Position numbers and translations under genes: made by a program. The notes under the pieces were generated by a model that was given only the letters and a program-made list of their open reading frames with translations, was not told the origin of the DNA and did no database searches. This document shows, one piece after another, positions 3,141-61,030 of a stretch of 64,000 nt of DNA (its first letter is position 1; each line of letters begins with the position of its first letter). The DNA lies in the NCBI RefSeq assembly GCF_963921235.1, contig NC_086108.1, forward strand, positions 8,494,001 through 8,558,000, in the 5' to 3' direction. This DNA comes from Mobula hypostoma (lineage: Eukaryota).

Positions 3141-3562
3141 ACTCAATGGTAACTTCATTGGATACAGGATGGAGTTGATAAAGTTTCCCCTGGGTGTTGT
3201 CTTGCAACAGCAGTACAGTGCAATACATAAAAACTGACTAAATGTAAAATCTAAACAAATAGTGCACAAAGGGCAAAGCTCGAAGCAAGTTTATCATCAA
3301 GGTACATAAATGTCATCATATACAACCCAGAGATTCATTCTCTAGTGGGAATACTCAATAAATCCATAGAATAATAACCATAACAGAATCAACGAAAGAC
3401 CAGACCAACTCGAGCATTCAACCAGTGTGCATAAGACAACAAACTACAAACACAAAAATAGTAATAATGAATAATCAATAAATATTGAGAACGTGAGATG
3501 AAGAGTTCTTGAAATGAGTCCATTTGTTGTTGGAACATTTCAAGGATGGGGCAAGTGAAGTT

Positions 3563-3797
3563 GAGTGAAGTTATCTCCTCTCGTTCAGGAGCCTGATGGT
3601 TGTGGGGTAATAACTGTTCCTGAACCTGGTGGTGTGGGACCTGAGGCTCATTGTGGTGAGTGAAGTTATCCACACTGGTTCAGGAGCCTGATGGTTGTGG
3701 GGTAATAACTGTTCCTGAACCTGGTGGTGTGGGACCTGAGGCTCATTGTGGTGAGTGAAGTTATCCACACTGGTTCAGGAGCCTGATGGTTGTGGGT
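3563..3797 (-). repeat. 95-bp tandem array (about 2.5 units)
   Basis: Same unit and junction. Confidence 0.9.
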
Positions 3798-4269
3798 GGA
3801 GTTAGTGCTGCCCCACCCCCCCCAGTGTTTGCTCAGCCGAAGACAAGCTCTGTTGTTTTCTTCTGCAGATTTTGGCGGCTTTGGAAGGCTTCAGTTTGGT
3901 CTCTTTAATCGAGTGGCTGTATCTTTCTATCTTGTATGTGCTATGTGTGCATTGTGCCATGTGTGACTGTTGGTATTCTGTTTTGTACCTTGGCTCTGGA
4001 GTAACGATGTCTTGTTTGGCTGTATTCATGGAGGGGTGGATGACAATTAAACTTGAATTGAATTTATTTATTATTATTATTTCTTTTTGTATTTGCACAG
4101 TTTGCTGTGTTCTGCACTCTGTTGAACAGCCAAGTTGGGGCATTATGCTATGGATTTACTGAGCATGCCCACAAGAAAATTAATCTCAGGGCTGTATATG
4201 GTGACATACATGTACTTTGATAACAAATTTATTACCATTTCTGGTAAAGCTTCATTTGAATCAGAATTA

Positions 4270-18620: not shown

Positions 18621-20863
18621 TACAGCCAAATCAGCTTTGAGATCACTGGCATTACTTTCTCTCCAGCCCTTTACCTTTCCTACCAATCTAGCTTCACCTA
18701 TCACCCTTTAATTGATTTAGATTAGATTATGAGGACACGTAGTCCTCTTTTATTGTTATTTAGTAATGCATGCATTACGAAATGATACATTATTTCCTCC
18801 AGTGTGATTTCACAAAACACAGGACAGACCAAGACTGAAAAAAACTGACAGAACCACATAATTATAACATGTAGTTACAACAGTGCAACAATACCATAAC
18901 TTGATGAAGAAGTCCGTGAGCACAGTAAAGTTCAAAGTCTTTCAAATATCCCACATCTCATGCAGGCGGGAGAAGGAAGAAAAACTCTCCCTGCCATGCC
19001 GACCACAATCCGACTCTGAGTCGTCCGAAAACTTCGAGCTCTGATCAGCTCTCCGACACCGAGTACTGACCGCCATCTCTGTCCAAACAATTTGATCTCC
19101 TATCTGGTCGCCAACAGCAGGCAAAGCCAGGGATTTTGAGGCCTACCCTCAGAAAGATTCCCGACCGCACAGTAACAACAGCAGCGGACGGGCGTTTCAG
19201 AAATTTTTCCAGATGTTCCTCTGTGCTTTCACGTCCATCTTCATCAAATCAGTATTGTCCACGGCCCCTATTTAACAGATACGATATCATTTTTCATCGG
19301 AGAGCTGTGCACGTGCGGCGCGCTGCCATCTCCTCCTGCCAATAAATAAATAAATTATTTATTGAGTTACAGCACGGAACAGGCCCCACTGGCCCTTCGA
19401 GCTGCACCACCCAGCAATCCCCCGATTTAACCCCTGCCTAATCACAGGACAATTTACAATCACCAACTGGTATGTCTTTGGACTGTGGGAGGAAACCAGA
19501 GCACCCGGAGGAAACACACGCGGTCACAGGGAGAATGTAGAAACTCCTCACCGGCAGCAGCAGGAATTGAACCGGGGCCGCTGGAATGGCAAAGCGCTGT
19601 GCCAACCACTACGTAACCGTGCCGCTACCTTCTAGCGATCCTCCTCCCCCTCCCCCTCCATCTTTTTAAACTGGCGCCTCCCCTCCGACACCTTCTCAGT
19701 CCAGATGAAGGGGCTTGACCCAAAATGGCGACTGTTTACTCCTCTTCATAGGTACTGCCAGACCTGCTGAGTTCCTCTAACATTTTGTGTGTGTGCTGCT
19801 TTTAACATCACTGGCATTTGTCATGAAATTTGTTGTTATGCAGCAGCAGTACAAATTGCAATACAAATACTCAAAACTGTAAATTAACTTAAGAATTATA
19901 TATATGAATAAAAGGTACTGAGGTAGTGTTCATGGATTCAATGTCCATTCAGAAATCGGATGGCAGAGGGGAAGAAGCTGTTCCTGAATCGTTGAGTGTG
20001 TGACGTCAGGCTCCTGCACCTCCTCCCTGATGATGGCAACGAGAACAAGGCATGACCTGGGTGATGGGGGTCCTTAATTCAAAGTACATTTATTGTCAAA
20101 GTATGTACGCAGTATACAACCTTGAGATTTGTCTCCCCCCGCAGACAGCCCCGAAAGAAAGAAACACTATGGAACCCATTCAAAGAAAAACATCAAACCC
20201 CCAACGTGCAAAAGGCACAAGAAAACGAACAAAAACACAGAATATAAAACATCAAATCACATATTAATGATGGATGCCGCATTCTTGAGACATCACTCCT
20301 TGAAGATGCCTCAAAAATTCAAAGCGCACTTGTTCTCAAAGTATGCATAAATTATACAACCTTGAGATTCGTCTGCTTACAGGCAGTCGCAAAGCAAGAA
20401 ACCTGAAAGAACTCACTTTAAAAAAAACAACACCAAATGTGCCGAGAGAGAGAGAAAAAACAAATGGTACAAACAATAGAAGCAAATAAAGCATTGAGAA
20501 TGAAAGTGAGCCCATGGATACGAAGCTGGAGCAGACTCACAGTCTCAGGCTTAGTTCTACAGCGTAGTTAAACATAATTGAGCTATTTTAAATGAAGTTA
20601 AGTGTTATTAAGCGGTCAACAAAAAGATGTCTTTCCTGGCTATCTCTAACTCTAATCAACTTGAACACAAAGAATCATTACATAACTAAAACTTTGCACT
20701 TTCACTACGCCCACACACATGACGAACTACCATAATAAAGATAATAAACGCACAGCACAAAAATACAATGCAGACAGAAAATAGATATATGGCTCCTACA
20801 AGTTGGAAAGTGCATTTGAAAGTGAGTCTGTAGGTGGTGGAATCAGTTCAGTATTGAGGTGTG

Positions 20864-21417
20864 TGAAGTTATCCACACTGGTTCAGGAGCCTGATGGTTG
20901 TGGGGTAATAACTGTTCCTGAACCTGGTGGTGTGGGACCTGAGGCTCATTGTGGTGAGTGAAGTTATCCACACTGGTTCAGGAGCCTGATGGTTGTGGGG
21001 TAATAACTGTTCCTGAACCTGCTGGTGTGGGACCTGAGGCTCATTGTGGTGGGTGAAGTTATCCACACTGGTTCAGGAGCCTGATGGTTGTGGGGTAATA
21101 ACTGTTCCTGAACCTGGTGGTGTGGGACCTGAGGCTCATTGTGGTGAGTGAAGTTATCCACACTGGTTCAGGAGCCTGATGGTTGTGGGGTAATAACTGT
21201 TCCTGAACCTGGTGGTGTGGGACCTGAGGCTCATTGTGGTGAGTGAAGTTATCCACACTGGTTCAGGAGCCTGATGGTTGTGGGGTGATAACTGTTCCTG
21301 AACCTGGTGGTGTGGGACCTGAGGCTCATTGTGAGTGAAGTTATCCACACTGGTTCAGGAGCCTGATGGTTGTGGGGTAATAACTGTTCCTGAACCTGGT
21401 GATGTGGGACCTGAGGC
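20864..21417 (-). repeat. 95-bp tandem array (about 6 units)
   Basis: Same unit and junction. Confidence 0.95.
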
Positions 21418-23924
21418 ATAATCCTATGAATAGATTTTTATGATATTATTTATTCATTTATTTACTGAGATACAGTGTGGAAAATGTCCTTTGAGCCATG
21501 TTGCCCAGCAATCCTCGAGGAAGGGGGTGGAGTTTAGGAAGTTAGGCACCTAACAGCAACTCCTTTTCTTGCATCTTTGGAAACAGGTCCATTCCTACCT
21601 TTGATATCTTTTTTCTCCCCCTTTCAAGGTTCTTTTGAAGACCCTGACCTGGAGTTACACGCTGACTTAGGTTCTTTGTGGAAATGGGACCCACCGTCAG
21701 GGCCTCACGGCCAGCCAGTCTTTGCCATGCCGAGGACGAGGCCTGGAAGACTAGCGCGCCTTCAGGGTGCTGGATTTTTGTGGCTCTGGAGACGGGCTGA
21801 TTCAAGGCCGGTGCTGCTGCCTGATGTGTCGTGGGAGAACACGGAAGATCAGAAACGGCGAGCTGGCTGCTGACTGTGTGCCCAGAGACTCAAGTTCATT
21901 GGGCACAGGGCTTGGAAAAAGCGACACAGCAGAAGGTCTATCCTGGGCCCAACATTTTGAACCAATTACAAAGAAGGCACAGAAGTGGCAATATTTCATA
22001 AGGACTTTGAGGCAATTTGGTTTGTCACCAAAGGCTCCAGCAGATTTCTACAGATGTAAGATGTTGAGGTAGAATTCTGACTGATGGCATCACTGTCTGG
22101 TATGGAGGCTGCAACGTACAGGACCGGAAAAAGCTGCGAAAGATTGTGGTCCATCATGGGCACTAGCTTCCCCACAATCAAGAACATCTGCAAAAGGCCT
22201 CAAGATGCGGCCTCCATTGTTAAGGACCATCAAGCATCAGGCCCCGATGGGGCTCTGAAAACCTGTCCAGTTGCATTCGTATCTATGGTGATGAAGTGCT
22301 TTGAATGCTTGGTCATGGCCAGAATCAACTCCTGCCTCAGCAAGGACCTGGGCCCGCTGCAATTTGTCTGTCACCACAATCGGTCTACAGTGGACGCCAT
22401 CTCGCTGGCTCGCCACTCGTTCTTGGGTCACCTCAACAATCGTAATACCTATGTCAGAATGCTCTTTATTGATTAAAGCTCAGCTTTCAACACAATCTTA
22501 CCCCCAGTTCTAATCAACAAGCTCCAAAACCTGAGCCTCTGCACCTTCCCCTTCAACTGGATCCTTAACTTCCTCACCAGAAGACCACAGTCTGTGCGGC
22601 TCAGAATTCACATCTCCTCGCACCTCAAGGATGCGTGCTCAGCCTGCTCTCTCTCTACACCCTCTATCGTGTGGCTAGGCACGGCTCAAACGCCGTCTAT
22701 AAAGTTACCAATGACACAACTACTGATGGCAGAGTTAGAGTATGACAGATCAGCTGATTGAGTGGAACATTGCACTCAACGTCAGCATGACTGAGGAACT
22801 GTTTGTGGACTTCAGGAAGGGGGAATCGAGGGAACAGACACCAGTCCTGGTACAACATCCACCAGTTTCAAGTTGCTGGGTGTCAACATCTGAGGGTCTA
22901 TCCTGGCCCCGACGTATTGAGCAGTTACAAAGAAGGCACAACAGTGGCTGTGTTTCATTAGGAGTTGGAGGACAATTGGTGTATCACCAAAAACACTCAC
23001 AAATTTCTATGGATGTACTGTGGAGAGCATTCTAACTGGCTGTATCACTGTCTGGTATGGAGGGGCCACTGCACAGGACCGAAAGCTGTAGGAAGTTTCA
23101 ACGTCAGCCGGCTCCATCATGGGCTCCAGCCTCCCCAGCACCCGGGACGCCTTCAAACAGCGGTGTCTCAAAAACACAACAAATATCATTCAGGACCCCC
23201 ATCCCCCAGGACGTGCCCTCTTCTCATTGCTACCATCAGGGAGGAGGTACAGGAGCCTGAAGACACACACTCAATGAACCCATGATCACCACCTCACTTT
23301 CTTGCTCTGGTTGAAACATCGACTTTTATTCCCCTCCACGGATGCTCTCTGACCTGCTGAGTTCCTCCAGTATTTCGAAGTTCAAAAATTCAGGGTAAAT
23401 TTTATGATCAGAGTACATATATGTCACCACATACAACCTGAGATTCATTTTCCCGTGGGCAATCTCAGCAAATCTATGGAATAGTAACTATATTACTATA
23501 ATAGTATATTATACTATAATAGTAACAATAAACTGGACTGGTCAAAGGACACTGAGGCTGTCTACAAGAAGGGTCAGAGCCATCTCTATTTCCTGAGGAG
23601 ACTGAGGTCCTTTAACATCCGCCGGACGATGCTGAGGATGTTCTACGAGTCTGTGGTGGCCAGTGCGATCATGTTTGCTGTTGTGTGCTGGGGCAGCAGG
23701 CTGAGGGTAGCAGACACCAACAGAGTCAACAAACTCATTCGTAAGGCCAGTGATGTTGTGGGGATAGAACTGGACTCTCTCACGGTGGTGTCTGAAAAGA
23801 GGATGCTGTCTAATTTGCATGCCATCTTGAACAATGTCTCCCATCCACTACATAATGTACTGGGTAGGCACAGGAGTACATTCAGCCAGAGACTCATTCC
23901 ACCGAGATGCAGTACTGAGCGTCA

Positions 23925-26900
23925 GAGTTACAAAATACACATGGACTAAGATGTTAACTCTCCTGTGCTATCACCAGTGGGATCATCAGTTGATCTGCCA
24001 CCTATCTTCAGGAGTTTCGGTCCGCTTATGATCAAGACTCCCTCGAGGTGGTGGGCCAGCAGTGCTAAAGCACCACCTCCCACTGGTGAGCTTAAAAACT
24101 TGGCATCTGCCTCTATCGGAGTTGTTGGTCACTTCCATCCAACAGATAGTCTGCTCTTCAGGTGTCTATGCAAATACTGAAGGGTTGGCAAGATATGTAT
24201 ACACTGTCTGACTATCTGCCCCTCTGGACGTACTTGGTCCACACCCATGCTGATCCTTTCTCTGCTGCCTCAGCTACAGCCCTGCTGGATGACTTGATCT
24301 CTCTTCTAGTGAAGCCAAGGTCACGCAGCCACTTCTGGAAAGTGAATACAATGAACCCACGGCAGCTTACTTCGAATGGGTAGCATGAGACCTTCCACCC
24401 TCTATCTCTGCACTCTGACCTTAACTCTGCATATTTGGTTAACTTGCGCTCATGGGCTTCGTCGATGTTGTCTTCCCAGGGGACTGTGAGTTCACCAATA
24501 ACCACTTCTCTACTGGTGTCAGACCATACGATTATATCTGGACGCAATGTGGTGAAAGCTATTTGCTCCGGGAAACTGCCTTTCCCGTCCAGGTTGGCCT
24601 TGACACACCAATCATTGGCTGAAGAAAGTATGCTTGATCGTGAGCCTGCGCTGTACACCCTTGTCTTGGAGCCTTTTTTCACAAATGATATGTGATGTTC
24701 TGTGCAGCATGGGGCATGAGATAAGTTGTGCTGCAGTACTCTCTGCTCAACCGCTTCTGTCACAACTTTGAGAACATTGTTATGTCTCCAAGTGTACATG
24801 CCGCTGGAAAGATTGACTCTGCATACATTGAAAATATGTTGAAGTGTTCCTCCTCGCCACAAGCTGCACACCTGTCTGTCTTATCTTCATACCAGGTGCT
24901 GAGGTTGGCAGGTGTTGGGAGCAGATTGTACGCTGCTCTGCATAAAAAAGAAATGCGGAGCGGTTCCATCTGCCACAGAACATTCCAAGGTAGGTGTCGT
25001 TGTTCAACACTTTCCCACCAGGTCTAAGCCCCTTGTTTGGCCGGGCCAGCTGTTTTAGTTAACCTCTTCTCCTCTTCTACCGCTCGTACTTCTTGTGTTA
25101 CAAGCTCACGGCGCTCCTTACCTGTAGAAGATGACCACCACTTGTGGGTTGTCCATCCAAGTCCCTGGCGGTCTAGCTGGATAGCCCCAACCGTCTCCTT
25201 GTGCTTCAATCTGGACTCTGCCTCATCCACTGCTACATGGGCTGACCACTTCCTGCCTGATCTCACATCCGGCTGGGTGTTCTTGATGACAGGGTCTTTT
25301 GAGTCTCGAAGCATCAAGAATGATCTTACCTTGGCTACCTTGACCTCTTCAACAAGGGATTGCACTGGGATGGTAAGCTTTGTCTGGCTACTGTGGATTG
25401 CAACACTGGTGAGGCTGCTCGCTACTCCAAGCCACTTCTTCACATACTTCCGTTCCATTGCCTCAACGTGGGACATTGACACTTCATAGACAGTTAGTGG
25501 CCACATTATCCGTGGCATCAGTCCGTACTGCAAGCACCACAACTTCAACTTGCCAGGCAAGCCACACTTATCGACAGATATCAGACCTCTGCTGATCTGT
25601 TCTCCTGTCTCTTGAACCCTCTTGGTGTCTCTCAGCTCCTCTGTGTACCATCGCCCGAGGCTCTTAACTGGTTGGACCTGAATGGATGGAATCTCCTCTC
25701 CAGAAAGGGTGAAATGAAAGTCAACCAGCTTTCCTCTCCTAAGAACAAGGCTCCTTGACTTCTTGGTCTTGAACTTCATTCTTCCCCAATCCATTAGCTC
25801 CTCAAGTCTAGATAGTACACTTTCCACTGCCTCCGTGCTGGGACCCAAAAGGGTAAGATCATCCATGAACGCTCGTATTGGTGGTAACTCCCCTCCGCCA
25901 TCATGTGCGACACCTGGTCCCACTGATTCTGCAGCCCTCACAATGACCTCCATGGCTAACACAAAAAGGATGGGTGAAATCGCACATCCCATTGGGATTC
26001 CAACATCCAAGCTCTGCCACCTAGTTATAAACAGCTGAGTGGAAAACCTCATCCGGAAATCGTTGTAATACTGCATAACAAAGTTCCTCACCTTAGCAGG
26101 AATCCATAGGAATTCCATCGCAAACTCAATCAGGACATGGAGAACAAATCCATACACATTTTCCAGATCAAGCCAAACTACAGCCAGATTTCTTCTCAAC
26201 CTTTTCGACTCCTGGATGGTATGTCATATCATACTAGAATGTTCAAGGCATCCCGGGAAGCCTGGTATTCCTGCCTTCTGCACAGATGTATTTACTAATC
26301 CATTCCCTATCACAAATGAAGATATTCTTTCTGCCAGAATGCCAAACATAATCTTCCCCTCTACCTTCAGGAGTGAAAATGGTCAGAACTGATTCAATGT
26401 AGAAGAATTCTCTTCCTTCGGGATGTATACTCCTTCAGCCTCACTCCATGACAAAGGAACAACACCTTGTCTCCACACCACCTTTAACAATCTCCACAAG
26501 TATTTCCTCAGCTCCTCACACTTCTTGAACACCTTATACGGCACTCCATTAGGTCCTGGCACTGAGCCTGACCTTGCCCTTCTGATGAACTGTTCGACTT
26601 CTGCCAGTTTGGGTTCTGACAGATCGAAATTCACTCCTGGCTTGGTAGGCTTCACAAGCCCTGAAATGTCAAGCAAAGGAGCCTCCCGCTGTTCGTTCGA
26701 GTAAGTGCTTGCCAGCTGATCCTCAAGTTCTTGTTGAGAGATGTTAAGCTGCCCGCTCTTACTTTGTTCAAACAATTTCTTTGTGAACTAGTGAGGGTTC
26801 TCAAAGAACGACTTTCTTGCCTTCTCTCTCTTCTTTCTCTTTTTACGTTGTGACTCCGCACGACGGAGTGATGCTAACTTTATTCAAAAATGCTCTCAGA

Positions 26901-27294
26901 GATCAGCAAGCCCTGGCTTGTTAACCTCACTTGCTAACTTCCACCTCTGTCTCAACGATCTAAGCTCTCTCCTCAACCTACTAATCTCCTTCTGGCGCCT
27001 GCTTGGTTGCTGTGTAGGCTTTGCTTTCTTCAACTCAACCAAACCAAACCTGTACTTTCCAACATCGTAAATCATATCGCCCATCACTTCCAACTTTCTC
27101 TTTGATGTTCCCCTGAGAGTGTTCTCCAACATCATACTGATATCCTCATCAAATACACGCCAAGCCTTCTCATCTGCCATTGCTGGCCACTTGACCTTCC
27201 TCTTCTTCTCTACCTCCACACCACAGCCATCATGCGAAGGATCTACCTGGGTACTGTGGTCTGAAACCTGACCTGGGTTATCTCTCGTCTGACT
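23925..27294 (-). mobile_element. Hero-clade non-LTR retrotransposon with restriction-like endonuclease, 5'-truncated and frameshifted
   Basis: ORF pieces 26896-27219, 26383-26775, 25024-26199, 24760-24969, 24212-24871. RT motifs VPGPNGVPY, VVWLDLEN, GIPMGCAISP, AFMDD; CCHC knuckle CAACGEE..QHIFNVC; YTWRHNNVL; endonuclease LRPDIIVWS..IGELTVPWEDNIDEAHERKLTKY. Flanked by TCA at 23922-23924 and 27295-27297. Confidence 0.9.
23971..24089 (-). ncRNA. Candidate permuted hammerhead-like structured RNA with kink-turn in Hero 3' UTR (copy A)
   Basis: Minus strand reads UCACCAGUGGGA-[GGUGGUGC uuua GCACUGCU]-GGCCC-a-CCACCU-C-GA-GGGAG-UC-UUGAUC-auaagc-GGACC-GAAA-CUCCU-GAA-GA-U-AGGUGG-ca-GAUCAA-CUGAUGA-UCCCACUGGUGA. 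Six helices and an intact CUGAUGA / GAAA / GUC core. Confidence 0.7.
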
Positions 27295-29039: not shown

Positions 29040-30320
29040 ACCAGCACATAAATGTCATCACAAAGAAGACAAGACAGCACCTTTAGAAGTTTGTGCAGAT
29101 TTGGAATGTCATCTAAAACTTTGACAAACAGTGGAGGGTATCCAGACTGGTTGCATCACAGCCTGGTATGGAAACACCAATGTTCAGTCATGGAAAAGTT
29201 TACAGAAAGTGATGGATACGGCCCGGTCCGTCACAGGCAAAACTCTCCCCACCATTGAACACACTTACAAGCAGTGCTGCCACAAGAAAGCAGCATCCAT
29301 CATCGGGAAGCCTCACCATCCAGAGCATGCTCTCTTCTCACTACTACCATCGGTCACGAGGTACAGGAGCCTCAGGTCCCACACCACCAGGTTCAGGAAC
29401 AGTTATTACCCTACAACCATCAAGTCCCACACGACCTGGTTCAGGAACAGTTATTACCCCACAACCATCAGGCTCCTGAACCAGTGTGGATAACTTCACT
29501 CACCACAATGAGCCTCAGGTCCCACACCACCAGGTTCAGGAACAGTTATTACCCCACAACCATCAGGCTCCTGAACCGCTGTGGATAACTTCACTCACCA
29601 CAATGAGCCTCAGGTCCCACACCACCAGGTTCAGGAACAGTTATTACCCCACGACCATCAGGCTCCTGAACCAATGTGGATAACTTCACTCACCACAATG
29701 AGCCTCAGGTCCCACACCACCAGGTTCAGGAACAGTTATTACCCCACGACCATCAGGCTCCTGAACCGGTGTGGATAACTTCACTCACCACAATGAGCCT
29801 CAGGTCCCACACCACCAGGTTCAGGAACAGTTATTACCCCACAACCATCAGGCTCCTGAACCGGTGTGGATAACTTCACTCACCACAATGAGCCTCAGGT
29901 CCCACACCACCAGGTTCAGGAACAGTTATTACCCCACGACCATCAGGCTCCTGAACCAGTGTGGATAACTTCACTCACCACAATGAGCCTCAGGTCCCAC
30001 ACCACCAGGTTCAGGAACAGTTATTACCCCACGACCATCAGGCTCCTGAACCAGTGTGGATAACTTCACTCACCTCAACTCTGAACTGATTCTATAACCT
30101 ACAGACTCACTTTCAATGACTCTACAACTCATGTTTTCAATATTATTTATTTATTTTTAATTTGCACAATTTGTCTTCTGCACATTGGTTGTTTGTCAGT
30201 CTTTGTATAGATTTTCATAAGTTCTACTGTATTTCTTTATTTTCCTGTAAATGCCTGCAAGAAAATGAATCTCAAGGTAGCACACACTGATGTATACGTA
30301 GTTTGATAATAAGTTTACTT
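29040..30320 (+). mobile_element. Rex1/Babar-type LINE 3' end containing a 95-bp tandem expansion
   Basis: TGCITAWYGN..HHPEHALFSLLPS..RYRSLRSHTTRFRNSYYPTTIRLLN. Many related fragments elsewhere (about 8350-9910, 21930-23300, 27560-27950, 45340-45720, 54050-54790, 58750-59100, 63234-63620). Confidence 0.85.
29365..30073 (+). repeat. 95-bp tandem array (about 7 units)
   Basis: Same unit and junction as the 50.8-kb array. Confidence 0.95.
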
Positions 30321-33348: not shown

Positions 33349-36300
33349 TGTAACCACATGACTGTCAGATCTTATTCGGCATCGTTAAAAGTGTACTTAG
33401 GCAGCCATCCAGGTAATGCTAGAGTAGTTGTCTGTGCCTTTAAGGGAGATGGTGATGTCATTACGCAGTGGCGAGACTATTTTGCTTTCTGCTGAAGATG
33501 TGGTAAGGCGTTGGAATTGAGATCTTCCCAGAGTGTGCTGGGCATGGTGAGGAAAGGTGAGCATTAATTGACAATATCCATGTGAATTTGTTTATGCTTG
33601 TTGGTGAATCAAGAACATCCATAATTTGACATGTTTTACATGTGGACGCTTTAGATTTTCACGAGTGAAGAAATCGACGTTGGGTAGCGTGGCTTATACC
33701 AAGTTCCTCACCATCGAAGTAGGATTGCCACTACCGTATTTGTACCGTATTAGTTCTGGTATCTTTTAACACTGCATACACAATTCTGTTCATACACAAG
33801 GGTGTGGATCGAAAGCTAAACTGAGATTGTAATGGCAAGAACTGTTTGTAAATTCATTTGTTTTGTTTCACAACCCTCTTCTGGCACTTAAACATCGAAA
33901 ACCGATAAAGGAATTAAAACCTGAAAAAGTATTTGTTGTCCTGAGCGTGTACTTTTCCCCAGGCTACAAAATCTGGTACCAGGAGTGGGGCTAATTCCAA
34001 GCCAGTTTAGAGGGTCTCTGATTGTTGTATGCGGTATGATTTACAATACCTAATACGGTGGTGGTGAAGACAGGACCGTGTTCCCGTCGGGGGAAGGAGA
34101 GAGCACGGTAGAGCCTTGTGGAGAGCATGCTGGAGCCTCGGGAACAGACCGGGACGTCAGTGACTGACGTCAGGATGCAGAGCGGTGACGTGGACCCCGG
34201 GAACTGCGGGCCGTGAAGCCCTCGCGTTCGCAGCGAAGGACGGCAGCAACTCCCTTTTGCAGGCTTGTGTGAACTTTAAAGACTTGAGCTTTTGCTATGT
34301 CACGCTCAGAGGACACACCAGTTGAACTTGATTTGACCGAACAAATTAGGGAATTGTGTAGTAGATATGATGAAGCCATGGCAACCATAGATAATTTAAG
34401 CAAAAGGTCCTATGTATATGTCCCAAGGGAAAGACACATTGTTCCATTTACAGGGGATGTTGAGAAAGATGGGAGGTCTGTTGATGACTTCATTGAAGAA
34501 GTACAACGTGCACTTCATGGTAGAGATCAGTGTGACCAGGATCAGTATGACTTTGTTATGTCCCTGCTCAGGGGTGCAGCATTAGAGGAAGCACACATGC
34601 GCAGTGATGCTGGGGAAGACCGGGCAGATGACTTGTTCACCTATCTCAGGGAAGCTTTTAGAGACGAGCGTAGTGCACCCCAGCTGTTGCATAGCTTCCA
34701 CAGTCGCAAACAGCGTGAGGGTGAAGATGTCAGAGAGTTTCACATGCCCGAGCCCAAGCTCTTAACTTGACACTGAAGCCCTTCCCCGATGCGGTGACCA
34801 ATGAGAGGGTGGTGCTCAGAGATCAATTTATCGAAGGGATCAGGGATCCATCCCTCAGAAGGGAGCTCCACAGATTCGTGAGGGGTCACCCTGAGTCCTC
34901 AGTGATAGAAGTGAGAGAGGAGGCTCGTCTGTGGCTCGCAGAAGAGCCCCTGGGAAATACAAAGTCTGGAAAGTCGAAGTGTAGCAGTGGCCAGGCACAG
35001 TGCCCGATTCTTAAAGCTCGGGAATCTGAGTCCGTCACACTAGATGACGTCCTTAAAGTGGTCGCAGAGCAGGGCAAAGCCCTTTGTGAATTGACTCAAG
35101 CAGTGAAAGTTCTCACTGTACAGAGGGATTTTACACACACTACTAGTGGCAGACGTAATTTACAGCCCAGGTTCACAGAAGATGGGCAACCAATATGTTT
35201 CAAGTGTCAGGTGGGAGGGCATTTGGCCAAGAATTGCCCACAGAAGCAGGGTGCAATGGAAGTGGAGCCTGCATCCTCCCGCCCTCAAGAGGTTGGGAGT
35301 CGGGCAATTCGGCGGAACCTCACAGATACAGATAATGTACAGCGATCCTGTGACCAGTTGCTGCAACGTGCCATACAGACATGTCCAGTTGTTGAGCTTG
35401 AAACATCAGGTGTTACTATCCGTTGTCTGTTGGACACAGGTAGTCAGGTAAACACCCTGACCGAGCAGTTCTTTAGAGAACATTTGAATGGAGAGGACGA
35501 GGGTACGTTGTCCACTGCTGGCTGGCTTAGGCCAACAGCTGCAAACGGTCTTGATATTCCTTACCTTGGGTATCTAGAGCTAGAGGTTCAAGCAATGGGC
35601 ATGAAGATACCAAATTGTGGCTTTCTAGTAGTCAGGGATCCTGTTGGCACTGAACCACCTGTCCCATGTATTGTAGACATGAACATTATCAGCCAGTGTA
35701 GGCAACTTGTCTATGCAGTGTTTGTCTTCGATGTCCAGTATCGTCCGGTTTGGAGCAATACCGTGGCTGATGCACTCTCTAGGCAGCCATTTGCAGAGGA
35801 GTCTGAGCCTGTCTCAGAGGATGCGGAGTTTGATGGGGCTGTGGCGATCTGTAGTTTGATCAATCGCGGCACTGCCCTTGACCCGGCACTGGTTACCGCT
35901 GGTCTTAACAGCCGTAGGGTTAAGCAGATTCGAGCCTGGGAAGCTGGTACTAGTGAGGTAAATGGTCCGACACAAGGGAACACTCCAACCCTCCCAGATT
36001 ACTCTAAAGGGGACTTGCGTACTTTTCAGCAGCAAGACCCTGTGTTAGGTGTCCTAAGAGACTTGTGGGATCAGAAAAGGAAGCTGAGTGGCCAGGAGCG
36101 TAAAACTCTGCCTAAACCCGTTTTGTCTCTGTTAAAGCATTGGGACAGCATCAGGGAGCGTAAAGGGTTACTGTATAGGGTAGTTGAGGATGAGAAGCTT
36201 AGGGAGTGTTACCAGCTTCTGGTACCAATCAGCTTGAGGAGCAAGGTGTTAGAGTATGTACAAGACTCTGTGGGCCATCAAGTCATAGAACGTACTCTGC

Positions 36301-37573
36301 AGTTGTTAAGAAGCCGATGTTTTTTGGTTGGGCATACATGAGGATGTGGCACGGTGGGTCAAAAATTGTCCACGTTGTGTACTAACTAAGATGCCGCAGC
36401 CTAGGATCCGCCCCCCCCCCTGCCCCCCATGAAGCCATTTCTGGTTTCTAGGCGGCCTGAAGTTGTAGCCGGCAAGTGATGGGTGTGAGAATGTCTTAGT
36501 GGTCACGGACATTTTCACTAAATTTACCCAAGCATTTCCAACTCGGGATCAAAAGGTGGAAACCACAGCAAGGGTGCTCTTGAGCGAATGGTTCATGAAG
36601 TACGCGGTCCCTGAGAGATTGCATTCTGACCAGGGCCGTAACTCCGAAAGTGAGGTCATAGCGGAGCTTTGCAAGCTATACGGGGAAAAGAAAAGCCGTA
36701 CCACACCTCATCATCTACTGGAAACGCGCAGTGCGAGCGTTTCAACAGGACGATGCGTGATTTGTTGCATATGTTGCCTCCAGAAAAGAAGCGCAGATGG
36801 CCAGAACAGACGGTGGACCGGAAACATGACTGGCTAGTCTCAGTTCAGTTCTCTTTAGAGAAGCAGTTAAGGAGGTTAAAAGTACCCTTGTAGTGAGCGA
36901 GTAATCGAGGACGATTACTTGAACGCAGGGGAGAATCTAACCCGGTGACCATCGGATCTTATTCAGTATTGTTAAAAGTGTACTTAGGCAGCCATCCGGG
37001 CAATGCTAGAGTAGTTGTCTGTGCCTTAAGGGAGACGTTGATGTTATTACGCATGCGCAGGATAATGGGGAAACCATTTTGCCTTCTGCTGAAGACGTGG
37101 TAAGGTGTTGGAATTGGGTTCTTCCCAGAGTGTGCTGGGCATGGTGAGGAAAGATTTCCACCAGTGAAGAAATCAACGCTGGGTAGCATGGCTTATAGCA
37201 AGTTCCTCACCATCCAAGCAGGATTGCCACTACCGTATTTGTACCATATTTGTACCGTATTAGTTCTGGTATTTTTATACTGCATATGCAATTCTGTTTA
37301 TACACAAGGGTGTGGATCGAAAGTTAAACTGAGATTGTAACAGCAAGACCTGGTCCTGACGAAGGGTCTCGGCCTGAAACGTCGACTGCACCTCTTCCTA
37401 CAGATGCTGCTTGGCCTGCTGTGTTCACCAGCAACTTTGATGTATGTTGTTTGTAAATTCGTTCGTTTTGTTTCGCGACCCTCTTCTGGTACTTAAACAT
37501 CGGAAACCGATAAAGGAATTAAAACCCGAAAAAGTATTTGTTGTCCTGAGTGTGTACTTTTCCCCAGACTACA
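33349..37573 (+). mobile_element. Gypsy/Ty3 LTR retrotransposon, internally deleted (no RT)
   Basis: 5' LTR 33349-33968 (TG..CA); 3' LTR 36936-37573; TSD CATA (33345-33348, 37574-37577); PBS TGGTACCAGGAGTGGGG 33974-33990; PPT about 36925-36935. PNMA-like gag 34297-, CCHC CFKCQVGGHLAKNC, protease LLDTGSQV, RNase H tail FDVQYRP..ADALSR, integrase [26 protein letters not shown]. Confidence 0.95.
37352..37388 (+). ncRNA. Minimal type I hammerhead in a Penelope fragment (about 37352-37447) inserted in the Gypsy 3' LTR
   Basis: GGUC-CUGACGA-AGG gucucgg CCU-GAAA-CG-UC-GACU; this segment is absent from the 5' LTR. Confidence 0.8.
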
Positions 37574-48045: not shown

Positions 48046-50815
48046 GACCGTGACTACACGAACAAAGTCACCACATCACAGACAACCAGTGCAGATACTG
48101 GACTGCCTTCATACAATGCTTTCGATGAATGCATCCGCCAAATCTTCGTTTCCATTGTAACATTCAAGATGATTGTCAGTACCTTCAAATTCTTCGTAGT
48201 TCCTAACTTGTTGAAGTAGTGAAATCATTTCATTTTCTCTCACATCTCATATGACCATCCACCACCTGCTCCTATGGCTTCACGTTACTCTGATCTGGTG
48301 GGGCGGGTAAGCAGGTACTACACCTTACTTAAGAGTGAAGAAGCGCTTCACACCTTCTTTGGTAGAAACGTATCTGCACCCCGCCACCTGATGATTCAAT
48401 GTACATGCAACAAATAAAGCCCATCCTCTCTTTAAGAACCTGCTGCTGTGTGGACAACCAACAGATTCCAGCTATTGTGATTGGGTTCTGAAGAAAGCTT
48501 TGTTAAGTGTTACTCTGCAAATTCCCAGCACAGATGGGACTTTTATCTCAGCCTCTGCCTGATCTGCTGATGGGGAAAATCTCGAAGTCATTTGCTGCTG
48601 TGTTCACTTTGGAACTCTCCAGGGATTTTCCATCCATTAAACCCGGAATCTGAATTTCTATCCTTGCCTGGATGGCAAACCAATAGAATCAGAATCAGGT
48701 TTAACATCACTGGTATCACTGAAATTTGTCGTTTTGCAGTAGCAGTACCATACAGTAAGATATACTGTACTTTACAGTTTTACATATAGATACAGAGATC
48801 GGGTGGTGGGGTGGAGGGTCTCTACCAAAGGAGGTGTCAGGGCCTCCTTCCCTCCACTAGTCTTCAGGTCACCCTTGGGCACGGTGTAGCACCTGCTTAG
48901 CCCCCGTATTCACTGGAATCCACTGTATATAATCACTGTGTGCCATGCCTAGTGATGTGGGCGATCATTGTCTTGACCACGACTGTTCTTGACATCAAAT
49001 CCTCAAGGGAAATGTATCATTTGTGCCAAGGACCAACTCATTCCGAGGATTGTGCTGGGGGCTGGGGGCAGCCCGCAAGTGTCGCCACACCTCTGGTGCC
49101 AACACAGCGTGCCCACACCTCACTAACCCAAACTGGTATTCCTTTGGAGGAAACCGGAGCACCTGGAGGAAACCCATGTGGTCATGGGGAGAACATACAA
49201 ATTCCTTACAGACAGCGGTGGGAACGAACCGGGGTCAATGGAGCAGTAACAGCATTACGATGTCTGCTACAATACTGTACCGCCCTTCACTGATGTTCAT
49301 ATTTCAAGAAAATTAATCTGCAGGATACTGAAAAAAAGGTTTTAAAAATATTGATAATTTCTGAGCAGCAGAGAGCTCCCATGAGCCAATCCCTGGAGTC
49401 TGTGTTCACAATATGAAACGATACATTGTCCAGATCCAACTTCAAGATCTTTTTTGTTCTGCTAATAAGGAGGGGGCATTCTGAACAAAGACACTCGTAA
49501 TACTTTGCCATTGCTGTTACGGTACTGACTAAGATCTTCTCTGAGGATCATCACTTCGTCATGGCGGAGAGGCTTGTGAGGTCAAGGGCGAGGGTCCAGA
49601 CAAAGAGCGATCCAACCAAGATCTCCATGGTGGAGCTGGTGGATGATGAAGACACATCACAAAGCAGTGAAGATGGAGGAGGGCTGAGACCCCAGTCGTC
49701 TTGCATTCCACGCTACGGGACTCTGACCCCGACCTGTCAGAGGTCATGCGGTGGCTGCCCGTACATCAGCCTCTCCACATTAAACAAAGTCACACACACG
49801 CGTTCTCCATTAAGCGAAACCATCCTAACATCCTGAAATAAGATGGGTGGTTCTCAGAAAGTGGTGAAATGGGACAGGAGTGTGAGGTCTGGAAGCCCCT
49901 CAGATCCACCTGTGCAGCCATTTGAAGACCCACCAATGGAGAACATGGTACTCAACTCGAGTAATTGCACCACTACTAACGACAAAGTTACGTTCAGTGG
50001 GTAGTGCTGGTGATCTTGGCTGTCTGGTTACTAACTGCAGCCTCCAAACTGCAGCTGTTGAACTGTACCTAGCCCATTACTGAATAAGATCACAGACAAT
50101 CTGATTGTACTTGCAACATCACAATCCTGTCTACATGTAGAGATCTTTCTCTGCCTGGTTTATCTGGAGCAGGGCTTCACTAACCTTTTTATGCCATGGA
50201 CTGCTCAATTACCCCAGGGGTCTGTGGGCACCAGGTTGGAAACCCTGATCTAGAATATGCCCACTTCTACCTCATCAAATTCAAGTTTATTGTGATCTGA
50301 CTGTACATGCAGTATATACAACCAAACAAAACAACGTTCCTCCAGACCATGGTGTGCCCACGCAGTGCTCCGGATTTCTTCCTCGGGGTTTACTGCCGAA
50401 GCCTTTCCCACGGGTGGGTACGGCCTCAAGGCAGTGGAGGTTTAAAATCAGAGTTTTCCTTTCCTAGACAGGCTGCCGCCCAGGGCTGACGAGCCCCACC
50501 TGCCCGAAGCAACTGGTTTTGAGGCGCCTTTGGCCCTTCTCTTGTCAGTAGAAACAGTTTCACCGGCCCTAGTGGCTAAGCCACACGTGAAGGCCGAGAG
50601 TTGGACTTGGTTGTTAGAGGCTGTTAGAGTCACACGCCATCTGGAGCACTTTATAGGAAAAGAACTATAATAGACTGACAAACAACCAATTTGCGAAAGA
50701 AGACAAACTGTGCAAATAGAAAAATAATACTCAGAAAATGAACTAGAGGTCATTGGTTAGGGGTGAAAGGTGAACTGTTTAAGGGAACATGAAGGGGGAA
50801 TCTTCTTCACTCAAA

Positions 50816-53243
50816 GCCTGATGGTTGTGGGGTAATAACTGTTCCTGAACCTGGTGGTGTGGGACCTGAGGCTCATTGTGGTGACTGAAGTTATCCACAC
50901 TGGTTCAGGAGCCTGACGGTTGTGGGGTAATAACTGTTCCTGAACCTGGTGGTGTGGGACCTGAGGCTCATTGTGGTGAGTGAAGTTATCCACACTGGTT
51001 CAGGAGCCTGACGGTTGTGGGGTAATAACTGTTCCTGAACCTGGTGGTGTGGGACCTGAGGCTCATTGTGGTGAGTGAAGTTATCCACACTGGTTCAGGA
51101 GTCTGACGGTTGTGGGGTAATAACTGTTCCTGAACCTGGTGGTGTGGGACCTGAGGCTCATTGTGGTGACTGAAGTTATCCACACTGGTTCATGAGCCTG
51201 ACGGTTGTGGGGTAATAACTGTTCCTGAACCTGGTGGTGTGGGACCTGAGGCTCATTGTGGTGACTGAAGTTATCCACACTGGTTCAGGAGCCTGACGGT
51301 TGTGGGGTAATAACTGTTCCTGAACCTGGTGGTGTGGGACCTGAGGCTCATTGTGGTGACTGAAGTTATCCACACTGGTTCAGGAGCCTGACGGTTGTGG
51401 GGTAATAACTGTTCCTGAACCTGGTGGTGTGGGACCTGAGGCTCATTGTGGTGACTGAAGTTATCCACACTGGTTCAGGAGCCTGACGGTTGTGGGGTAA
51501 TAACTGTTCCTGAACCTGGTGGTGTGGGACCTGAGGCTCATTGTGGTGAGTGAAGTTATCCACACTGGTTCAGGAGCCTGACGGTTGTGGGGTAATAACT
51601 GTTCCTGAACCTGGTGGTGTGGGACCTGAGGCTCATTGTGGTCAGTGAAGTTATCCACACTGGTTCAGGAGCCTGACGGTTGTGGGGTAATAACTGTTCC
51701 TGAACCTGGTGGTGTGGGACCTGAGGCTCATTGTGGTGACTGAAGTTATCCACACTGGTTCAGGAGCCTGACGGTTGTGGGGTAATAACTGTTCCTGAAC
51801 CTGGTGGTGTGGGACCTGAGGCTCATTGTGGTCAGTGAAGTTATCCACACTGGTTCAGGAGCCTGACGGTTGTGGGGTAATAACTGTTCCTGAACCTGGT
51901 GGTGTGGGACCTGAGGCTCATTGTGGTGACTGAAGTTATCCACACTGGTTCAGGAGCCTGACGGTTGTGGGGTAATAACTGTTCCTGAACCTGGTGGTGT
52001 GGGACCTGAGGCTCATTGTGGTGAGTGAAGTTATCCACACTGGTTCAGGAGCCTGACGGTTGTGGGGTAATAACTGTTCCTGAACCTGGTGGTGTGGGAC
52101 CTGAGGCTCATTGTAGTGAGTGAAGTTATCCACACTGGTTCAGGAGCCTGACGGTTGTGGGGTAATAACTGTTCCTGAACCTGGTGGTGTGGGACCTGAG
52201 GCTCATTGTGGTGACTGAAGTTATCCACACTGGTTCAGGAGCCTGACGGTTGTGGGGTAATAACTGTTCCTGAACCTGGTGGTGTGGGACCTGAGGCTCA
52301 TTGTGGTGAGTGAAGTTATCCACACTGGTTCAGGAGCCTGACGGTTGTGGGGTAATAACTGTTCCTGAACCTGGTGGTGTGGGACCTGAGGCTCATTGTA
52401 GTGACTGAAGTTATCCACACTGGTTCAGGAGCCTGACGGTTGTGGGGTAATAACTGTTCCTGAACCTGGTGGTGTGGGACCTGAGGCTCATTGTGGTGAC
52501 TGAAGTTATCCACACTGGTTCAGGAGCCTGACGGTTGTGGGGTAATAACTGTTCCTGAACCTGGTGGTGTGGGACCTGAGGCTCATTGTGGTGACTGAAG
52601 TTATCCACACTGGTTCAGGAGCCTGACGGTTGTGGGGTAATAACTGTTCCTGAACCTGGTGGTGTGGGACCTGAGGCTCATTGTGGTCAGTGAAGTTATC
52701 CACACTGGTTCAGGAGCCTGACGGTTGTGGGGTAATAACTGTTCCTGAACCTGGTGGTGTGGGACCTGACGCTCATTGTAGTGACTGAAGTTATCCACAC
52801 TGGTTCAGGAGCCTGACGGTTGTGGGGTAATAACTGTTCCTGAACCTGGTGGTGTGGGACCTGAGGCTCATTGTGGTGACTGAAGTTATCCACACTGGTT
52901 CAGGAGCCTGACGGTTGTGGGGTAATAACTGTTCCTGAACCTGGTGGTGTGGGACCTGAGGCTCATTGTGGTGACTGAAGTTATCCACACTGGTTCAGGA
53001 GCCTGACGGTTGTGGGGTAATAACTGTTCCTGAACCTGGTGGTGTGGGACCTGAGGCTCATTGTGGTGACTGAAGTTATCCACACTGGTTCAGGAGCCTG
53101 ACGGTTGTGGGGTAATAACTGTTCCTGAACCTGGTGGTGTGGGACCTGAGGCTCATTGTGGTGACTGAAGTTATCCACACTGGTTCAGGAGCCTGACGGT
53201 TGTGGGGTAATAACTGTTCCTGAACCTGGTGGTCTGGGACCTA
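50816..53243 (-). repeat. 95-bp tandem array (about 25 units) derived from a LINE 3' end
   Basis: Exact 95-bp periodicity in the sequence and the ORF track. Confidence 0.97.
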
Positions 53244-54927: not shown

Positions 54928-55158
54928 TCCGCAGTGCCGCCGATGCGGCAGAGAGGGCCTCAAGATGGCTGTGGCTCAAAAGAGGGGAGCCATGGAGTCC
55001 TAAATAGCGAGCCATCTGGACACAAGCTGGGGTCTGATCAGCCCCGGCTGGGTCACCTGGAGGAGGTTGTATGATGTTGAAAGACCCGGAACACCTGATG
55101 ATTCCAGGAACATCACTGAAGACGTGTCCAGAAGCATCAGTAGATGTACGTACACAGT
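54928..55158 (+). mobile_element. Hero-clade 3' fragment nested in the Helitron 5' end
   Basis: Translates AADAAERASRWLWLKRGEPWSPK* (stop 55005-55007), homologous to the C-terminus of the 60593-60907 and 24212-24871 ORFs; followed by the structured 3' UTR. Confidence 0.8.
55015..55132 (+). ncRNA. Hero 3' UTR hammerhead-like motif (copy B)
   Basis: UCUGGACAC/GUGUCCAGA; hairpin AGCUGGGG..CCCCGGCU; GGGUC/GACCC; CCUGGA/UCCAGG with GA/GA kink-turn; GUA-UGAUGUU/AACAUCA-CUGAAGA; GAAA mutated to GGAA. Confidence 0.65.
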
Positions 55159-60569: not shown

Positions 60570-61030
60570 AGTCCCTGAGGCCGGACAAGCAGGTGATCAT
60601 GGTGGCACTGACAGCTCCTTGGGAAGACTGGATTGAGGAAGCGTTCCGGTGTAAGAAGGGCAAATACCAGGAGCTGGTAGAGCTCTGTCAGAGACAAGGG
60701 TGGAGGGCACGATGCCAGTCTACAGAGGGGTGGGGTGTAGAGGTTTTGCTGGCTGCTCTCTGTCGAGCCTACTCTCTCCTTGACATTATGGGGGCTGCAA
60801 AGACCCTCAGGACCGTCACACAAGCTGTTAAGCAAGCCTCCAGGTGGCTATGGATCAAGAGGCGTGACCCGTGGACCAGTGCTGCTGGGACACAAGCCGG
60901 GGCCTGATCAACCCTGCTGGGTCACCTGGGCGAGGGTCCCTGGTGTTGAAAGACCTGAAACACTCAATGACCCCAGGTTACATCACTAATGATGTGTCCC
61001 AATGCATCCCGGGGTGTATCTCAGCACGTA
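60570..61030 (+). mobile_element. Hero-clade 3' fragment (endonuclease C-terminus + 3' UTR)
   Basis: ORF 60593-60907: VALTAPWEDWIEEAFRCKKGKYQELVELCQRQGWRARC..AVKQASRWLWIKR. Confidence 0.85.
60886..61001 (+). ncRNA. Hero 3' UTR hammerhead-like motif (copy C, decayed core)
   Basis: UGGGACACA/UGUGUCCCA; GGGUC/GACCU-GAAA; ACCUGGG-C-GA / AAU-GA-C-CCCAGGU kink-turn; UGGUGU/ACAUCA-CUAAUGA (G>A); cleavage triplet mutated. Confidence 0.6.

Follow-up and report, generated by a model that had tools for sequence, protein, structure and literature searches.

A putative kink-turn hinge in the SGC-order, hammerhead-like motif of R2-like retrotransposons

Why should an RNA motif in the 3' untranslated region (UTR) of a retrotransposon end its stem III in a kink-turn (k-turn), and would such a k-turn serve the fold itself or a protein that binds it? 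The question is raised by a stretch of 64,000 nucleotides (nt) from Mobula hypostoma (assembly GCF_963921235.1, contig NC_086108.1, positions 8,494,001 to 8,558,000 of the forward strand; this whole stretch is hereafter the window, and positions are counted from its first letter). A first-pass annotation had marked three copies of a pseudoknotted motif there (A, B and C), each with a canonical k-turn extending stem III. The motif sits in the 3' UTR of R2-like (Hero-type) retrotransposons; the clade label Hero is taken from that annotation and is presumptive, the homologues being unnamed or 'uncharacterized'. Judged from sequence comparison, the k-turn is real and conserved in most lineages, and the best reading of it is a hinge that folds by itself within a novel form of the SGC hammerhead, not a switch for the host protein Snu13.

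The three k-turns are present in the window as described, each of the six strand strings being found once. A canonical (C) stem, a 3-nt bulge, the G1b-A2b and G2n-A1n pairs, a 3b.3n pair and a 6-bp non-canonical (NC) stem occur in 3/3 copies, and the assignment to the k-turn consensus is backed by conservation and covariation across families. The three copies are members of three separate families, not of one, with C.C (A), U.G (B) and C.C (C) at 3b.3n. Only copy A has an intact hammerhead core; copy B carries GGAA instead of GAAA, and copy C carries CUAAUGA instead of CUGAUGA and has lost U16.1. The 3b base of copy A is a U private to this copy, C.C being found in 28 of the 29 parsed family A copies. 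Within the families the tandem GA pairs on both strands (GA/GA) are retained in 29/29 parsed copies of A (30 loci), 19/20 of B and 19/22 parsed copies of C (30 loci), although these copies, having been picked for their similarity to those of the window, do not count as independent evidence. No RNA data set stood among the 24 sequencing runs listed as carrying the motif, all of them contigs; four of these showed only its presence and family variants and gave no information about ends or circles. No Rfam match was obtained in the window at gathering scores, nor around the motif at E values up to 5.

For the comparison across families, loci were selected by protein only: a protein alignment of 29 sequences confirmed 371 metagenome stretches, and the best 80 of the 371 were taken. 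After 14 loci with fewer than 260 bases past the open reading frame (ORF) were set aside, 66 were scored with a core finder that ignored the k-turn; strict settings gave 52 loci and relaxed settings 8 more, out of 14 with enough sequence and no strict hit within 600 bases. The fold was thus found in 60 of the 66 loci with enough 3' sequence, and a core in 0/70 and 0/64 reversed-sequence controls. The 60 cores comprise 37 standard k-turns, 10 variants and 13 with another asymmetric loop or junction, where 32 passed a strict k-turn test, L099 and four relaxed hits were added by eye to give 37, and all classes past the 32 were assigned by hand. Among the ten variants, G1b is replaced by A in five (L096, L103, L128, L129 and L139) and G2n by U in one, one has an extra base, one is a degenerate copy, and two have a 4-nt bulge or a mismatch at -1. 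The 13 cores without a k-turn have a bulge of 3 to 7 bases on the opposite strand (10), a same-strand bulge without GA pairs (2) or a three-way junction (1), and all of them hold this asymmetric loop or junction at the same position. The families with an opposite-strand bulge (L062, L063, L067, L085, L089, L116, L120, L130, L138 and L140) mostly have a shorter path from GAAA to CUGA (18-19 versus 22-25 bases, four collapsed families).

When the 52 strict loci were collapsed to 42 non-redundant families, GA/GA accompanied a 3-nt bulge in 28/42, and was found at bulges of 1, 2, 4, 5, 6 and 7 nt in 1, 5, 0, 5, 3 and 6 families and at 0 nt in 10, a number partly due to the frequent GA at L1-L2. 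Most positions of stems III, I and NC are occupied by several different Watson-Crick pairs, and the three stems scored above all 5000 strand shuffles, with p-values (about 4e-5) that are optimistic because the families are related. The NC stem was paired at 134/140 positions against a null mean of 73 and a maximum of 96, a count that, like that for stem I, is partly circular because the stems helped to define the classes. K-turns are scattered all over the protein tree, and no fewer than 4 switches of state are needed for its 60 labelled rows (a quick, unrooted tree made without L085, L134 and L005, which have frameshifts), and the k-turn is probably ancestral because k-turns occur on both sides of the midpoint. 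The first-pass annotation had expected both the bulge length and the GA pairs to be conserved, and this was borne out in most families but failed in the 13 of 60 cores without a k-turn; on these alignments, the bend is conserved and the k-turn is not universal.

The k-turn caps stem III of a hammerhead whose core blocks are ordered S, G, C in 60/66 loci, a non-circular permutation described by Eckert et al. 2023 (PMC10085705). From 5' to 3' the motif runs a, hairpin h, b, c, 3n, GA, d, U, H, e, a short linker, b', GAAA, d', three bulged bases, GA, 3b, c', e', CUGANGA and a'. Stem III of the hammerhead, formed by d/d', doubles as the C helix of the k-turn; c/c' makes the NC helix, and stem I is e/e'. 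A stem II placed directly after A9 was rejected, as the strand 3' of CUGANGA matches the strand 5' of GAAA at 3 of 4 pairs in only 8/42 families. The strand after CUGANGA pairs upstream (helix a) in 31/42 families (null mean 13), and the strand before GAAA pairs with b (helix b) in 37/42 (null mean 12), usually with one hairpin between a and b, which would make a four-way junction at the position of stem II. Short linkers connect the ends of helix b, the NC helix and stem I, which would thereby form an outer three-way junction. Single-strand folding programs, which cannot model pseudoknots or sheared pairs, recovered helices a and h in copies A and B and did not return the pseudoknotted core or the k-turn; L075, one of six references, was left out of this comparison. 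The parts of the three motifs are as follows, the copy A coordinates beyond the linker having been adjusted by one base by hand and checked against family variants at 24004 and 24021.

24053..24089, minus strand: copy A, 5' arm of the putative four-way junction in place of stem II, with strand a (24078-24089), hairpin h (24058-24077) and strand b (24053-24057), the first G of which is the G10.1 equivalent
24036..24051, minus strand: copy A, non-bulged strand of the k-turn and the site, with NC stem CCACCU (24046-24051), 3n C (24045), G2n-A1n (24043-24044), stem III 3' side GGGAG (24038-24042), U16.1 (24037) and C17 (24036), cleavage being predicted 3' of C17 by hammerhead analogy
24030..24035, minus strand: copy A, stem I strand immediately 3' of the predicted cleavage site
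24015..24023, minus strand: copy A, block G, with strand b' (24019-24023), ending in C11.1, and GAAA (24015-24018)
23998..24014, minus strand: copy A, bulged strand of the k-turn (string match and family comparison), with stem III 5' side CUCCU (24010-24014), bulge GAA (24007-24009), G1b-A2b (24005-24006), 3b U, in the family C (24004), and NC stem AGGUGG (23998-24003)
23983..23995, minus strand: copy A, block C, with stem I strand GAUCAA (23990-23995) and CUGAUGA (23983-23989)
23971..23982, minus strand: copy A, strand a', which pairs with a and closes the motif
24038-24051 and 23998-24014, minus strand: the two strings quoted for copy A, a single occurrence each
55015..55132, plus strand: copy B motif, family B, k-turn 55056-55069 / 55092-55108, 3b.3n U.G
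55056-55069 and 55092-55108, plus strand: the two strings quoted for copy B, a single occurrence each
60887..61000, plus strand: copy C motif, family C, k-turn 60925-60938 / 60961-60977, 3b.3n C.C
60924-60938 and 60961-60978, plus strand: the two strings quoted for copy C, a single occurrence each

The hammerhead core was scanned in 45 loci with C3, U4, G8, A9, A13 and A14 required and positions 5, 6, 12, 15.1, 16.1 and 17 left free. With the site placed by the stems alone, U16.1 was found in 45/45 loci and N17 was never G (A in 16, C in 16, U in 13), and position 1.1 was G in 11. The first base of b is G, the equivalent of G10.1, in 45/45, opposite C (43) or U (2) at 11.1, and 10.1-11.1 is the most conserved pair of hammerheads after 15.1-16.1 (PMC3088659). 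Overall, G5, A6, G12, U16.1, a non-G at 17 and the G10.1-C11.1 pair are kept in 44-45/45 loci, and stems and loops vary freely. The motif therefore keeps all core features save the backbone link from A9 to G10.1. It has CUGANGA, GAAA and NUH with H not G, and covarying stems I and III around the site; G10.1 stands on an upstream strand, stem II does not directly follow A9, and we call the motif hammerhead-like and do not file it as a standard hammerhead. That it cleaves is a prediction we regard as fairly probable; published SGC hammerheads do so at 0.007-0.13 per min (PMC10085705). Elsewhere in the window (37356-37381, plus strand), a minimal hammerhead-like motif of ordinary order (CUGACGA, a short stem, GAAAC) lies in another abundant repeat, which is probably Penelope-like.

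The place of the k-turn in this fold suggests what it may do. The NC helix corresponds to the helix between stems I and II of the published SGC ribozymes, in which the direct link from the end of stem III to that helix is described as unexplained and hard to reconcile with the crystal structure (Eckert et al., PMC10085705). Because the NC helix joins the far ends of stem I and of the stem II equivalent, stem III must turn back, and on topological grounds the predicted natural solution to this link is a k-turn, whose included angle is about 50 degrees (PMC5061560); the role of the k-turn in the S-adenosylmethionine (SAM-I) riboswitch is comparable (PMC3651934). The earlier claim that the bend lets both pseudoknot strands reach the core thus gains indirect backing from the asymmetric loop or junction kept in all 13 k-turn-less cores, but has to be loosened in that the k-turn is not always what makes the bend. 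The opposite-strand bulges imply that more than one geometry works.

Whether a k-turn folds in ions or awaits a protein is reflected in its base pairs. Folding in Mg2+ goes with 3b = C or 3n = G, not both, and 60% of SAM-I k-turns have A.G at 3b.3n, with mostly G-C or G.U in U4 k-turns (PMC4382518, PMC8191799). A C-G pair at -1 also favours folding (Ashraf et al., PMC5689011), and human box C/D k-turns retain U.U together with G-C at 4b.4n (PMC5689011). In the 28 k-turn families the folding rule is followed by 22, with 40% expected from base composition. A.G is the most frequent 3b.3n pair (10), Watson-Crick pairs and U.U occur in 2 families each, and the G-C or G.U of U4 in 0/28; both U.U families carry U-A at 4b.4n and not the G-C of box C/D. 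At -1b/-1n the families have C-G (22), U.G (4) or U-A (2), and never G-C. As far as these letters go, the pattern at 3b.3n and -1 is of the riboswitch type, that is, ion-folded. These riboswitch-type pairs, and the fact that G1b and, in some lineages, the entire k-turn have been lost in nature, point to an architectural role.

The elements that carry the motif were recognized from their proteins. Copy A lies ~120 to 240 bases past the stop codon of a broken reverse-transcriptase ORF (RVT_1) on the minus strand, whose C-terminus has a cysteine motif and PD..ELTVPWE, and copies B and C lie on the plus strand 3' of similar ORF ends. The elements have the single-ORF layout of the restriction-like endonuclease (RLE) type, with RVT_1, conserved CxxC..HxxxC and PD..ELTVPWE, and an N-terminal CxxC..H, motifs which we take to be a zinc finger, a cysteine motif and a PD-(D/E)xK endonuclease. 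The copy that holds motif A is laid out as follows.

23925..27292, minus strand: family A copy, an RLE-type retrotransposon without long terminal repeats (LTRs), broken and 5'-truncated
25024-26223, minus strand: its reverse-transcriptase piece (RVT_1, E 7e-11)
~24212, minus strand: stop at which its endonuclease piece ends, followed by a 3' UTR of ~285 nt

A first look at the 3.5-Gb genome gave 1562 (A), 1381 (B) and 2664 (C) candidates, which are not copy numbers; a loose genome-wide pattern had 25,543 matches against 10,382 in a control, with other repeats mixed in, and was therefore left unused as a copy number. Ordinary copies lie in unrelated flanks, and the viral contigs searched held no relatives. 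At the start of the unit, repeated short hairpin-like GUGAC..GGAAAG units were seen in L090, L099, L101, L103, L114, L121, L128 and the family A 5' UTR (L218); they are conserved among distant families, in which the frame is open far upstream, and are possibly a translation or priming signal. In L128 and L129, a stretch resembling transfer RNA (GUGGU..AG..GGUUCAA.UCCC) was spotted by eye between the stop codon and the motif.

The genomic copies bear on what would become of a cut RNA. In family A the predicted cut lies 108 bases 5' of the 3' end of the element, and genomic copies keep the whole motif across it. Long family A copies have no fixed 5' end; after a further 490 bases they enter their own 3' end, with a unit of ~3855 bases. 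In 30 copies picked by the first 200 bases of the unit, 3'-end sequence stands upstream in 30/30, as a BLAST-detected duplicate in 26 and a short tail seen by eye in 4, and the 5' ends lie upstream of the cut site in 16 (duplicate of up to 1677 bases), downstream in 14 and at the site in none. Of 30 family C-like loci, 14 begin upstream of the site and 4 at it or beyond, one of these exactly at it; the other 12 are without a duplicate. These overruns led us to reject a simple R2-like model with a 5' end set by the cut (upstream starts in 16/30 of family A and 14/18 of family C-like). All 22 loci listed have an identical junction sequence. Within a locus the two ends differ by 3.9%, against 5.0% between loci (22 of 25 long regions with both ends), and minority variants are shared by 75/269 (28%) within a locus and 399/5498 (7%) between loci; none of the 25 long regions has two full units. 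Among metagenome loci with at least 500 bases past the motif, an ORF start of the same kind and strand follows in 11/29, these loci being assemblies of repeats that may be collapsed. One metagenome contig (L091:3340-5840, L086:1-2500) has two different families head to tail, ~3.7 kb apart, and may be a real heterotandem, a template switch or a misassembly. Dispersed copies in the ray's own genome (L185-L214, L215-L242 and L243-L272) have the 3' end with its motif joined head to tail to the 5' UTR; in L185-L214 several family A 5' ends fall at the borders of CUGAUGA and GAAA, 60-71 or 90-93 bases ahead of the junction, and are perhaps pauses at structure boundaries.

Taken jointly, these observations incline us, by a little, to the reading that an Mg2+-folding k-turn hinge closes an SGC-order hammerhead and that the RNA is likely to be cut and rejoined. 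Stem I, helix b and the NC helix would meet at the outer three-way junction and so make a cage with three paths between it and the core, in which the path of stem III and NC would need a sharp bend, for which most families would use a k-turn and some a simple bulge. The four-way junction would replace stem II, with G10.1 supplied by the upstream strand. After a cut at NUH, helices a, b, NC and III (~27 bp in family A) would keep the products together and thus make it easier to re-ligate them or to copy past the nick. A longer-than-unit copy would have two ribozymes, and if both cut, a unit-length RNA of ~3.9 kb could be released and closed into a circle. Priming would take place at a constant position inside the unit, 108 nt 3' of the cut, and copying would go on until the enzyme dissociates. 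Copies that overrun their 5' end into a duplicated 3' end would be expected from a circular template, in line with the retrozyme model (PMC7761336). The larger proposal, that Hero-type protein-coding long interspersed nuclear elements (LINEs) replicate through a ~3.9 kb circular RNA cut and closed by a new cage-like hammerhead with a k-turn and a four-way junction, we put forward tentatively, as possible and somewhat short of probable.

Several points weigh against this account. A9 is not directly continued by stem II, which breaks the block rule of PMC10085705, and we found no paper showing that a four-way junction is tolerated at the stem II position; the passages seen of PMC2632901 did not bear out that a viroid hammerhead accepts an additional base between A9 and G10.1, and this point carries no weight here. 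No core was found in 6/66 loci, and the bulge was on the opposite strand in 8 of the first 11 k-turn-less cores, which leaves the geometry argument loose. The 5' ends do not pile up at the cut (0/30 in family A, 1/18 in family C), which fits no cleavage too, and the joint of two families in the L091/L086 contig is unexplained by a single circle. To these come the partial circularity of the pairing counts and the relatedness of the families noted above, and the post-insertion mutations that genomic copies hold. Some of the same facts favour a fold that keeps the k-turn hinge and no longer cuts, being a hammerhead-derived docking structure for the element's own protein, with the long copies as uncut tandem transcripts or template jumps: there is no direct stem II, the motif is complete across the predicted cut in every dispersed copy, and the 5' ends do not cluster at the site. 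A docking structure, however, need not keep U16.1, a non-G at 17, G5, A6, G12 and the G10.1-C11.1 pair nearly without exception, and no tandem master is seen where two full units are missing from all 25 long regions; we hold it to be rather unlikely. Alternatively, and with respect to the head-to-tail copies only, new 5'-truncated copies may insert independently and by preference just upstream of full-length ones already in place, and the duplicates would then be uninformative on circles and cleavage. Many RLE elements are target-specific (PMC4640811), the upstream duplicates show a smooth spread of lengths, and the L091/L086 contig joins different families, but no full-length copy among 30 lacks the upstream tail, the junction is the same in the loci listed, the two ends of a locus are closer to each other than to other loci, and ordinary copies sit in unrelated flanks, so that this explanation is improbable.

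The proposal of the first-pass annotation that a host protein of the L7Ae family, such as Snu13 (15.5K), gates folding or cleavage through the k-turn did not fare well. The consensus is standard, with purine-rich L1/L2 and U at L3 in 20/28 families; L7Ae induces the folding of nearly all k-turns, irrespective of the 3b.3n pair (PMC4382518, PMC5689011), and for this reason binding in vitro is likely; and PMC10085705 allows a helper protein for the slow SGC ribozymes. Against it stand the ion-folded signature in 22/28 families with the U4-type pair in none and the box C/D U.U in 2/28, the replacement by A, in five loci, of the G1b that L7Ae proteins contact (PMC5061560), and the 13/60 cores without any k-turn. 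A functional Snu13 site is thus, in our estimate, distinctly improbable. That the GA pairs are incidental and the element an ordinary internal loop would suit a short consensus that single-strand folding programs do not return, but exactly three bulged bases with GA/GA recur in 28/42 families whose stems have changed completely, which largely refutes the idea and leaves it scarcely credible.

Other repeats also occur in the window. Frames at 34288-36341 (plus strand) have a zinc knuckle and an integrase zinc-binding domain and probably stem from an LTR element that has decayed. A 95-base unit akin to the tail of a common repeat forms tandem arrays, in both orientations, at 3495-3889, 20793-21472, 29325-30179 and 50720-53250.

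The hinge, if correct, offers a concrete answer to the SGC puzzle of how the end of stem III links to the helix between stems I and II, and the dozens of natural variants with and without the kink could be used to test it. SGC-order hammerheads, known from rare RNAs of metatranscriptomes, would then also be represented by thousands of copies in the genome of a vertebrate, and a natural k-turn would lie inside a small self-cleaving ribozyme. Should the motif cut and rejoin, an R2-like retrotransposon would use a circular template, a rolling-circle route in this clade that bears on priming and on the use of such elements for gene insertion. A hammerhead with a built-in k-turn would further be a ready scaffold for L7Ae-responsive switches. 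We found no published description of a hammerhead-embedded k-turn in such retrotransposons, in a search that did not extend to subscription journals, Repbase Reports or preprint supplements; the available text of PMC10085705 is without the words kink, k-turn and Hero, and its available supplement without kink, Danio and Metazoa.

Among known systems, the ion-folded k-turns (Kt-7, SAM-I riboswitch) share the 3-nt bulge, the tandem G.A/A.G pairs, C-G at -1 and A.G or 3b = C, and they bend a helix, which allows its far end to form a long-range contact (PMC4382518, PMC5061560, PMC8191799, PMC3651934). In the lysine riboswitch and ribonuclease P, as here, the k-turn is replaced by other kinks in some lineages (PMC5061560). 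In the predicted k-turn described here, unlike in those, both strands run on into pseudoknotted helices that belong to the fold of a nucleolytic ribozyme, and the host is a mobile element of eukaryotes. The type-SGC hammerheads (HRIMA-1 and variants, PMC10085705) have the same S, G, C order, all core letters, a short linker from stem I to the 3' strand of stem II, and an extra helix between the far ends of stems I and II. In the present motif, by contrast, block C is split, with helix a after CUGANGA and the stem II partner coming from upstream through the putative four-way junction, stem III is closed on both strands by the k-turn, and the host is an autonomous retrotransposon. Retrozymes and Penelope-like hammerheads likewise have a motif at the repeat boundary, a circular RNA intermediate proposed or shown, and complementary DNA of more than one unit (PMC7761336), but retrozymes are small and non-coding and use type I or III hammerheads, whereas the element here is a 3.9-kb protein-coding RLE element with an SGC-order core. 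The 5' ribozyme of R2, which resembles that of hepatitis delta virus, is also a self-cleaving motif in an RLE-clade element transcribed by read-through (PMC7761336, PMC7650587); it defines a fixed 5' end, whereas the motif described here lies in the 3' UTR and the 5' ends overrun its predicted cut.

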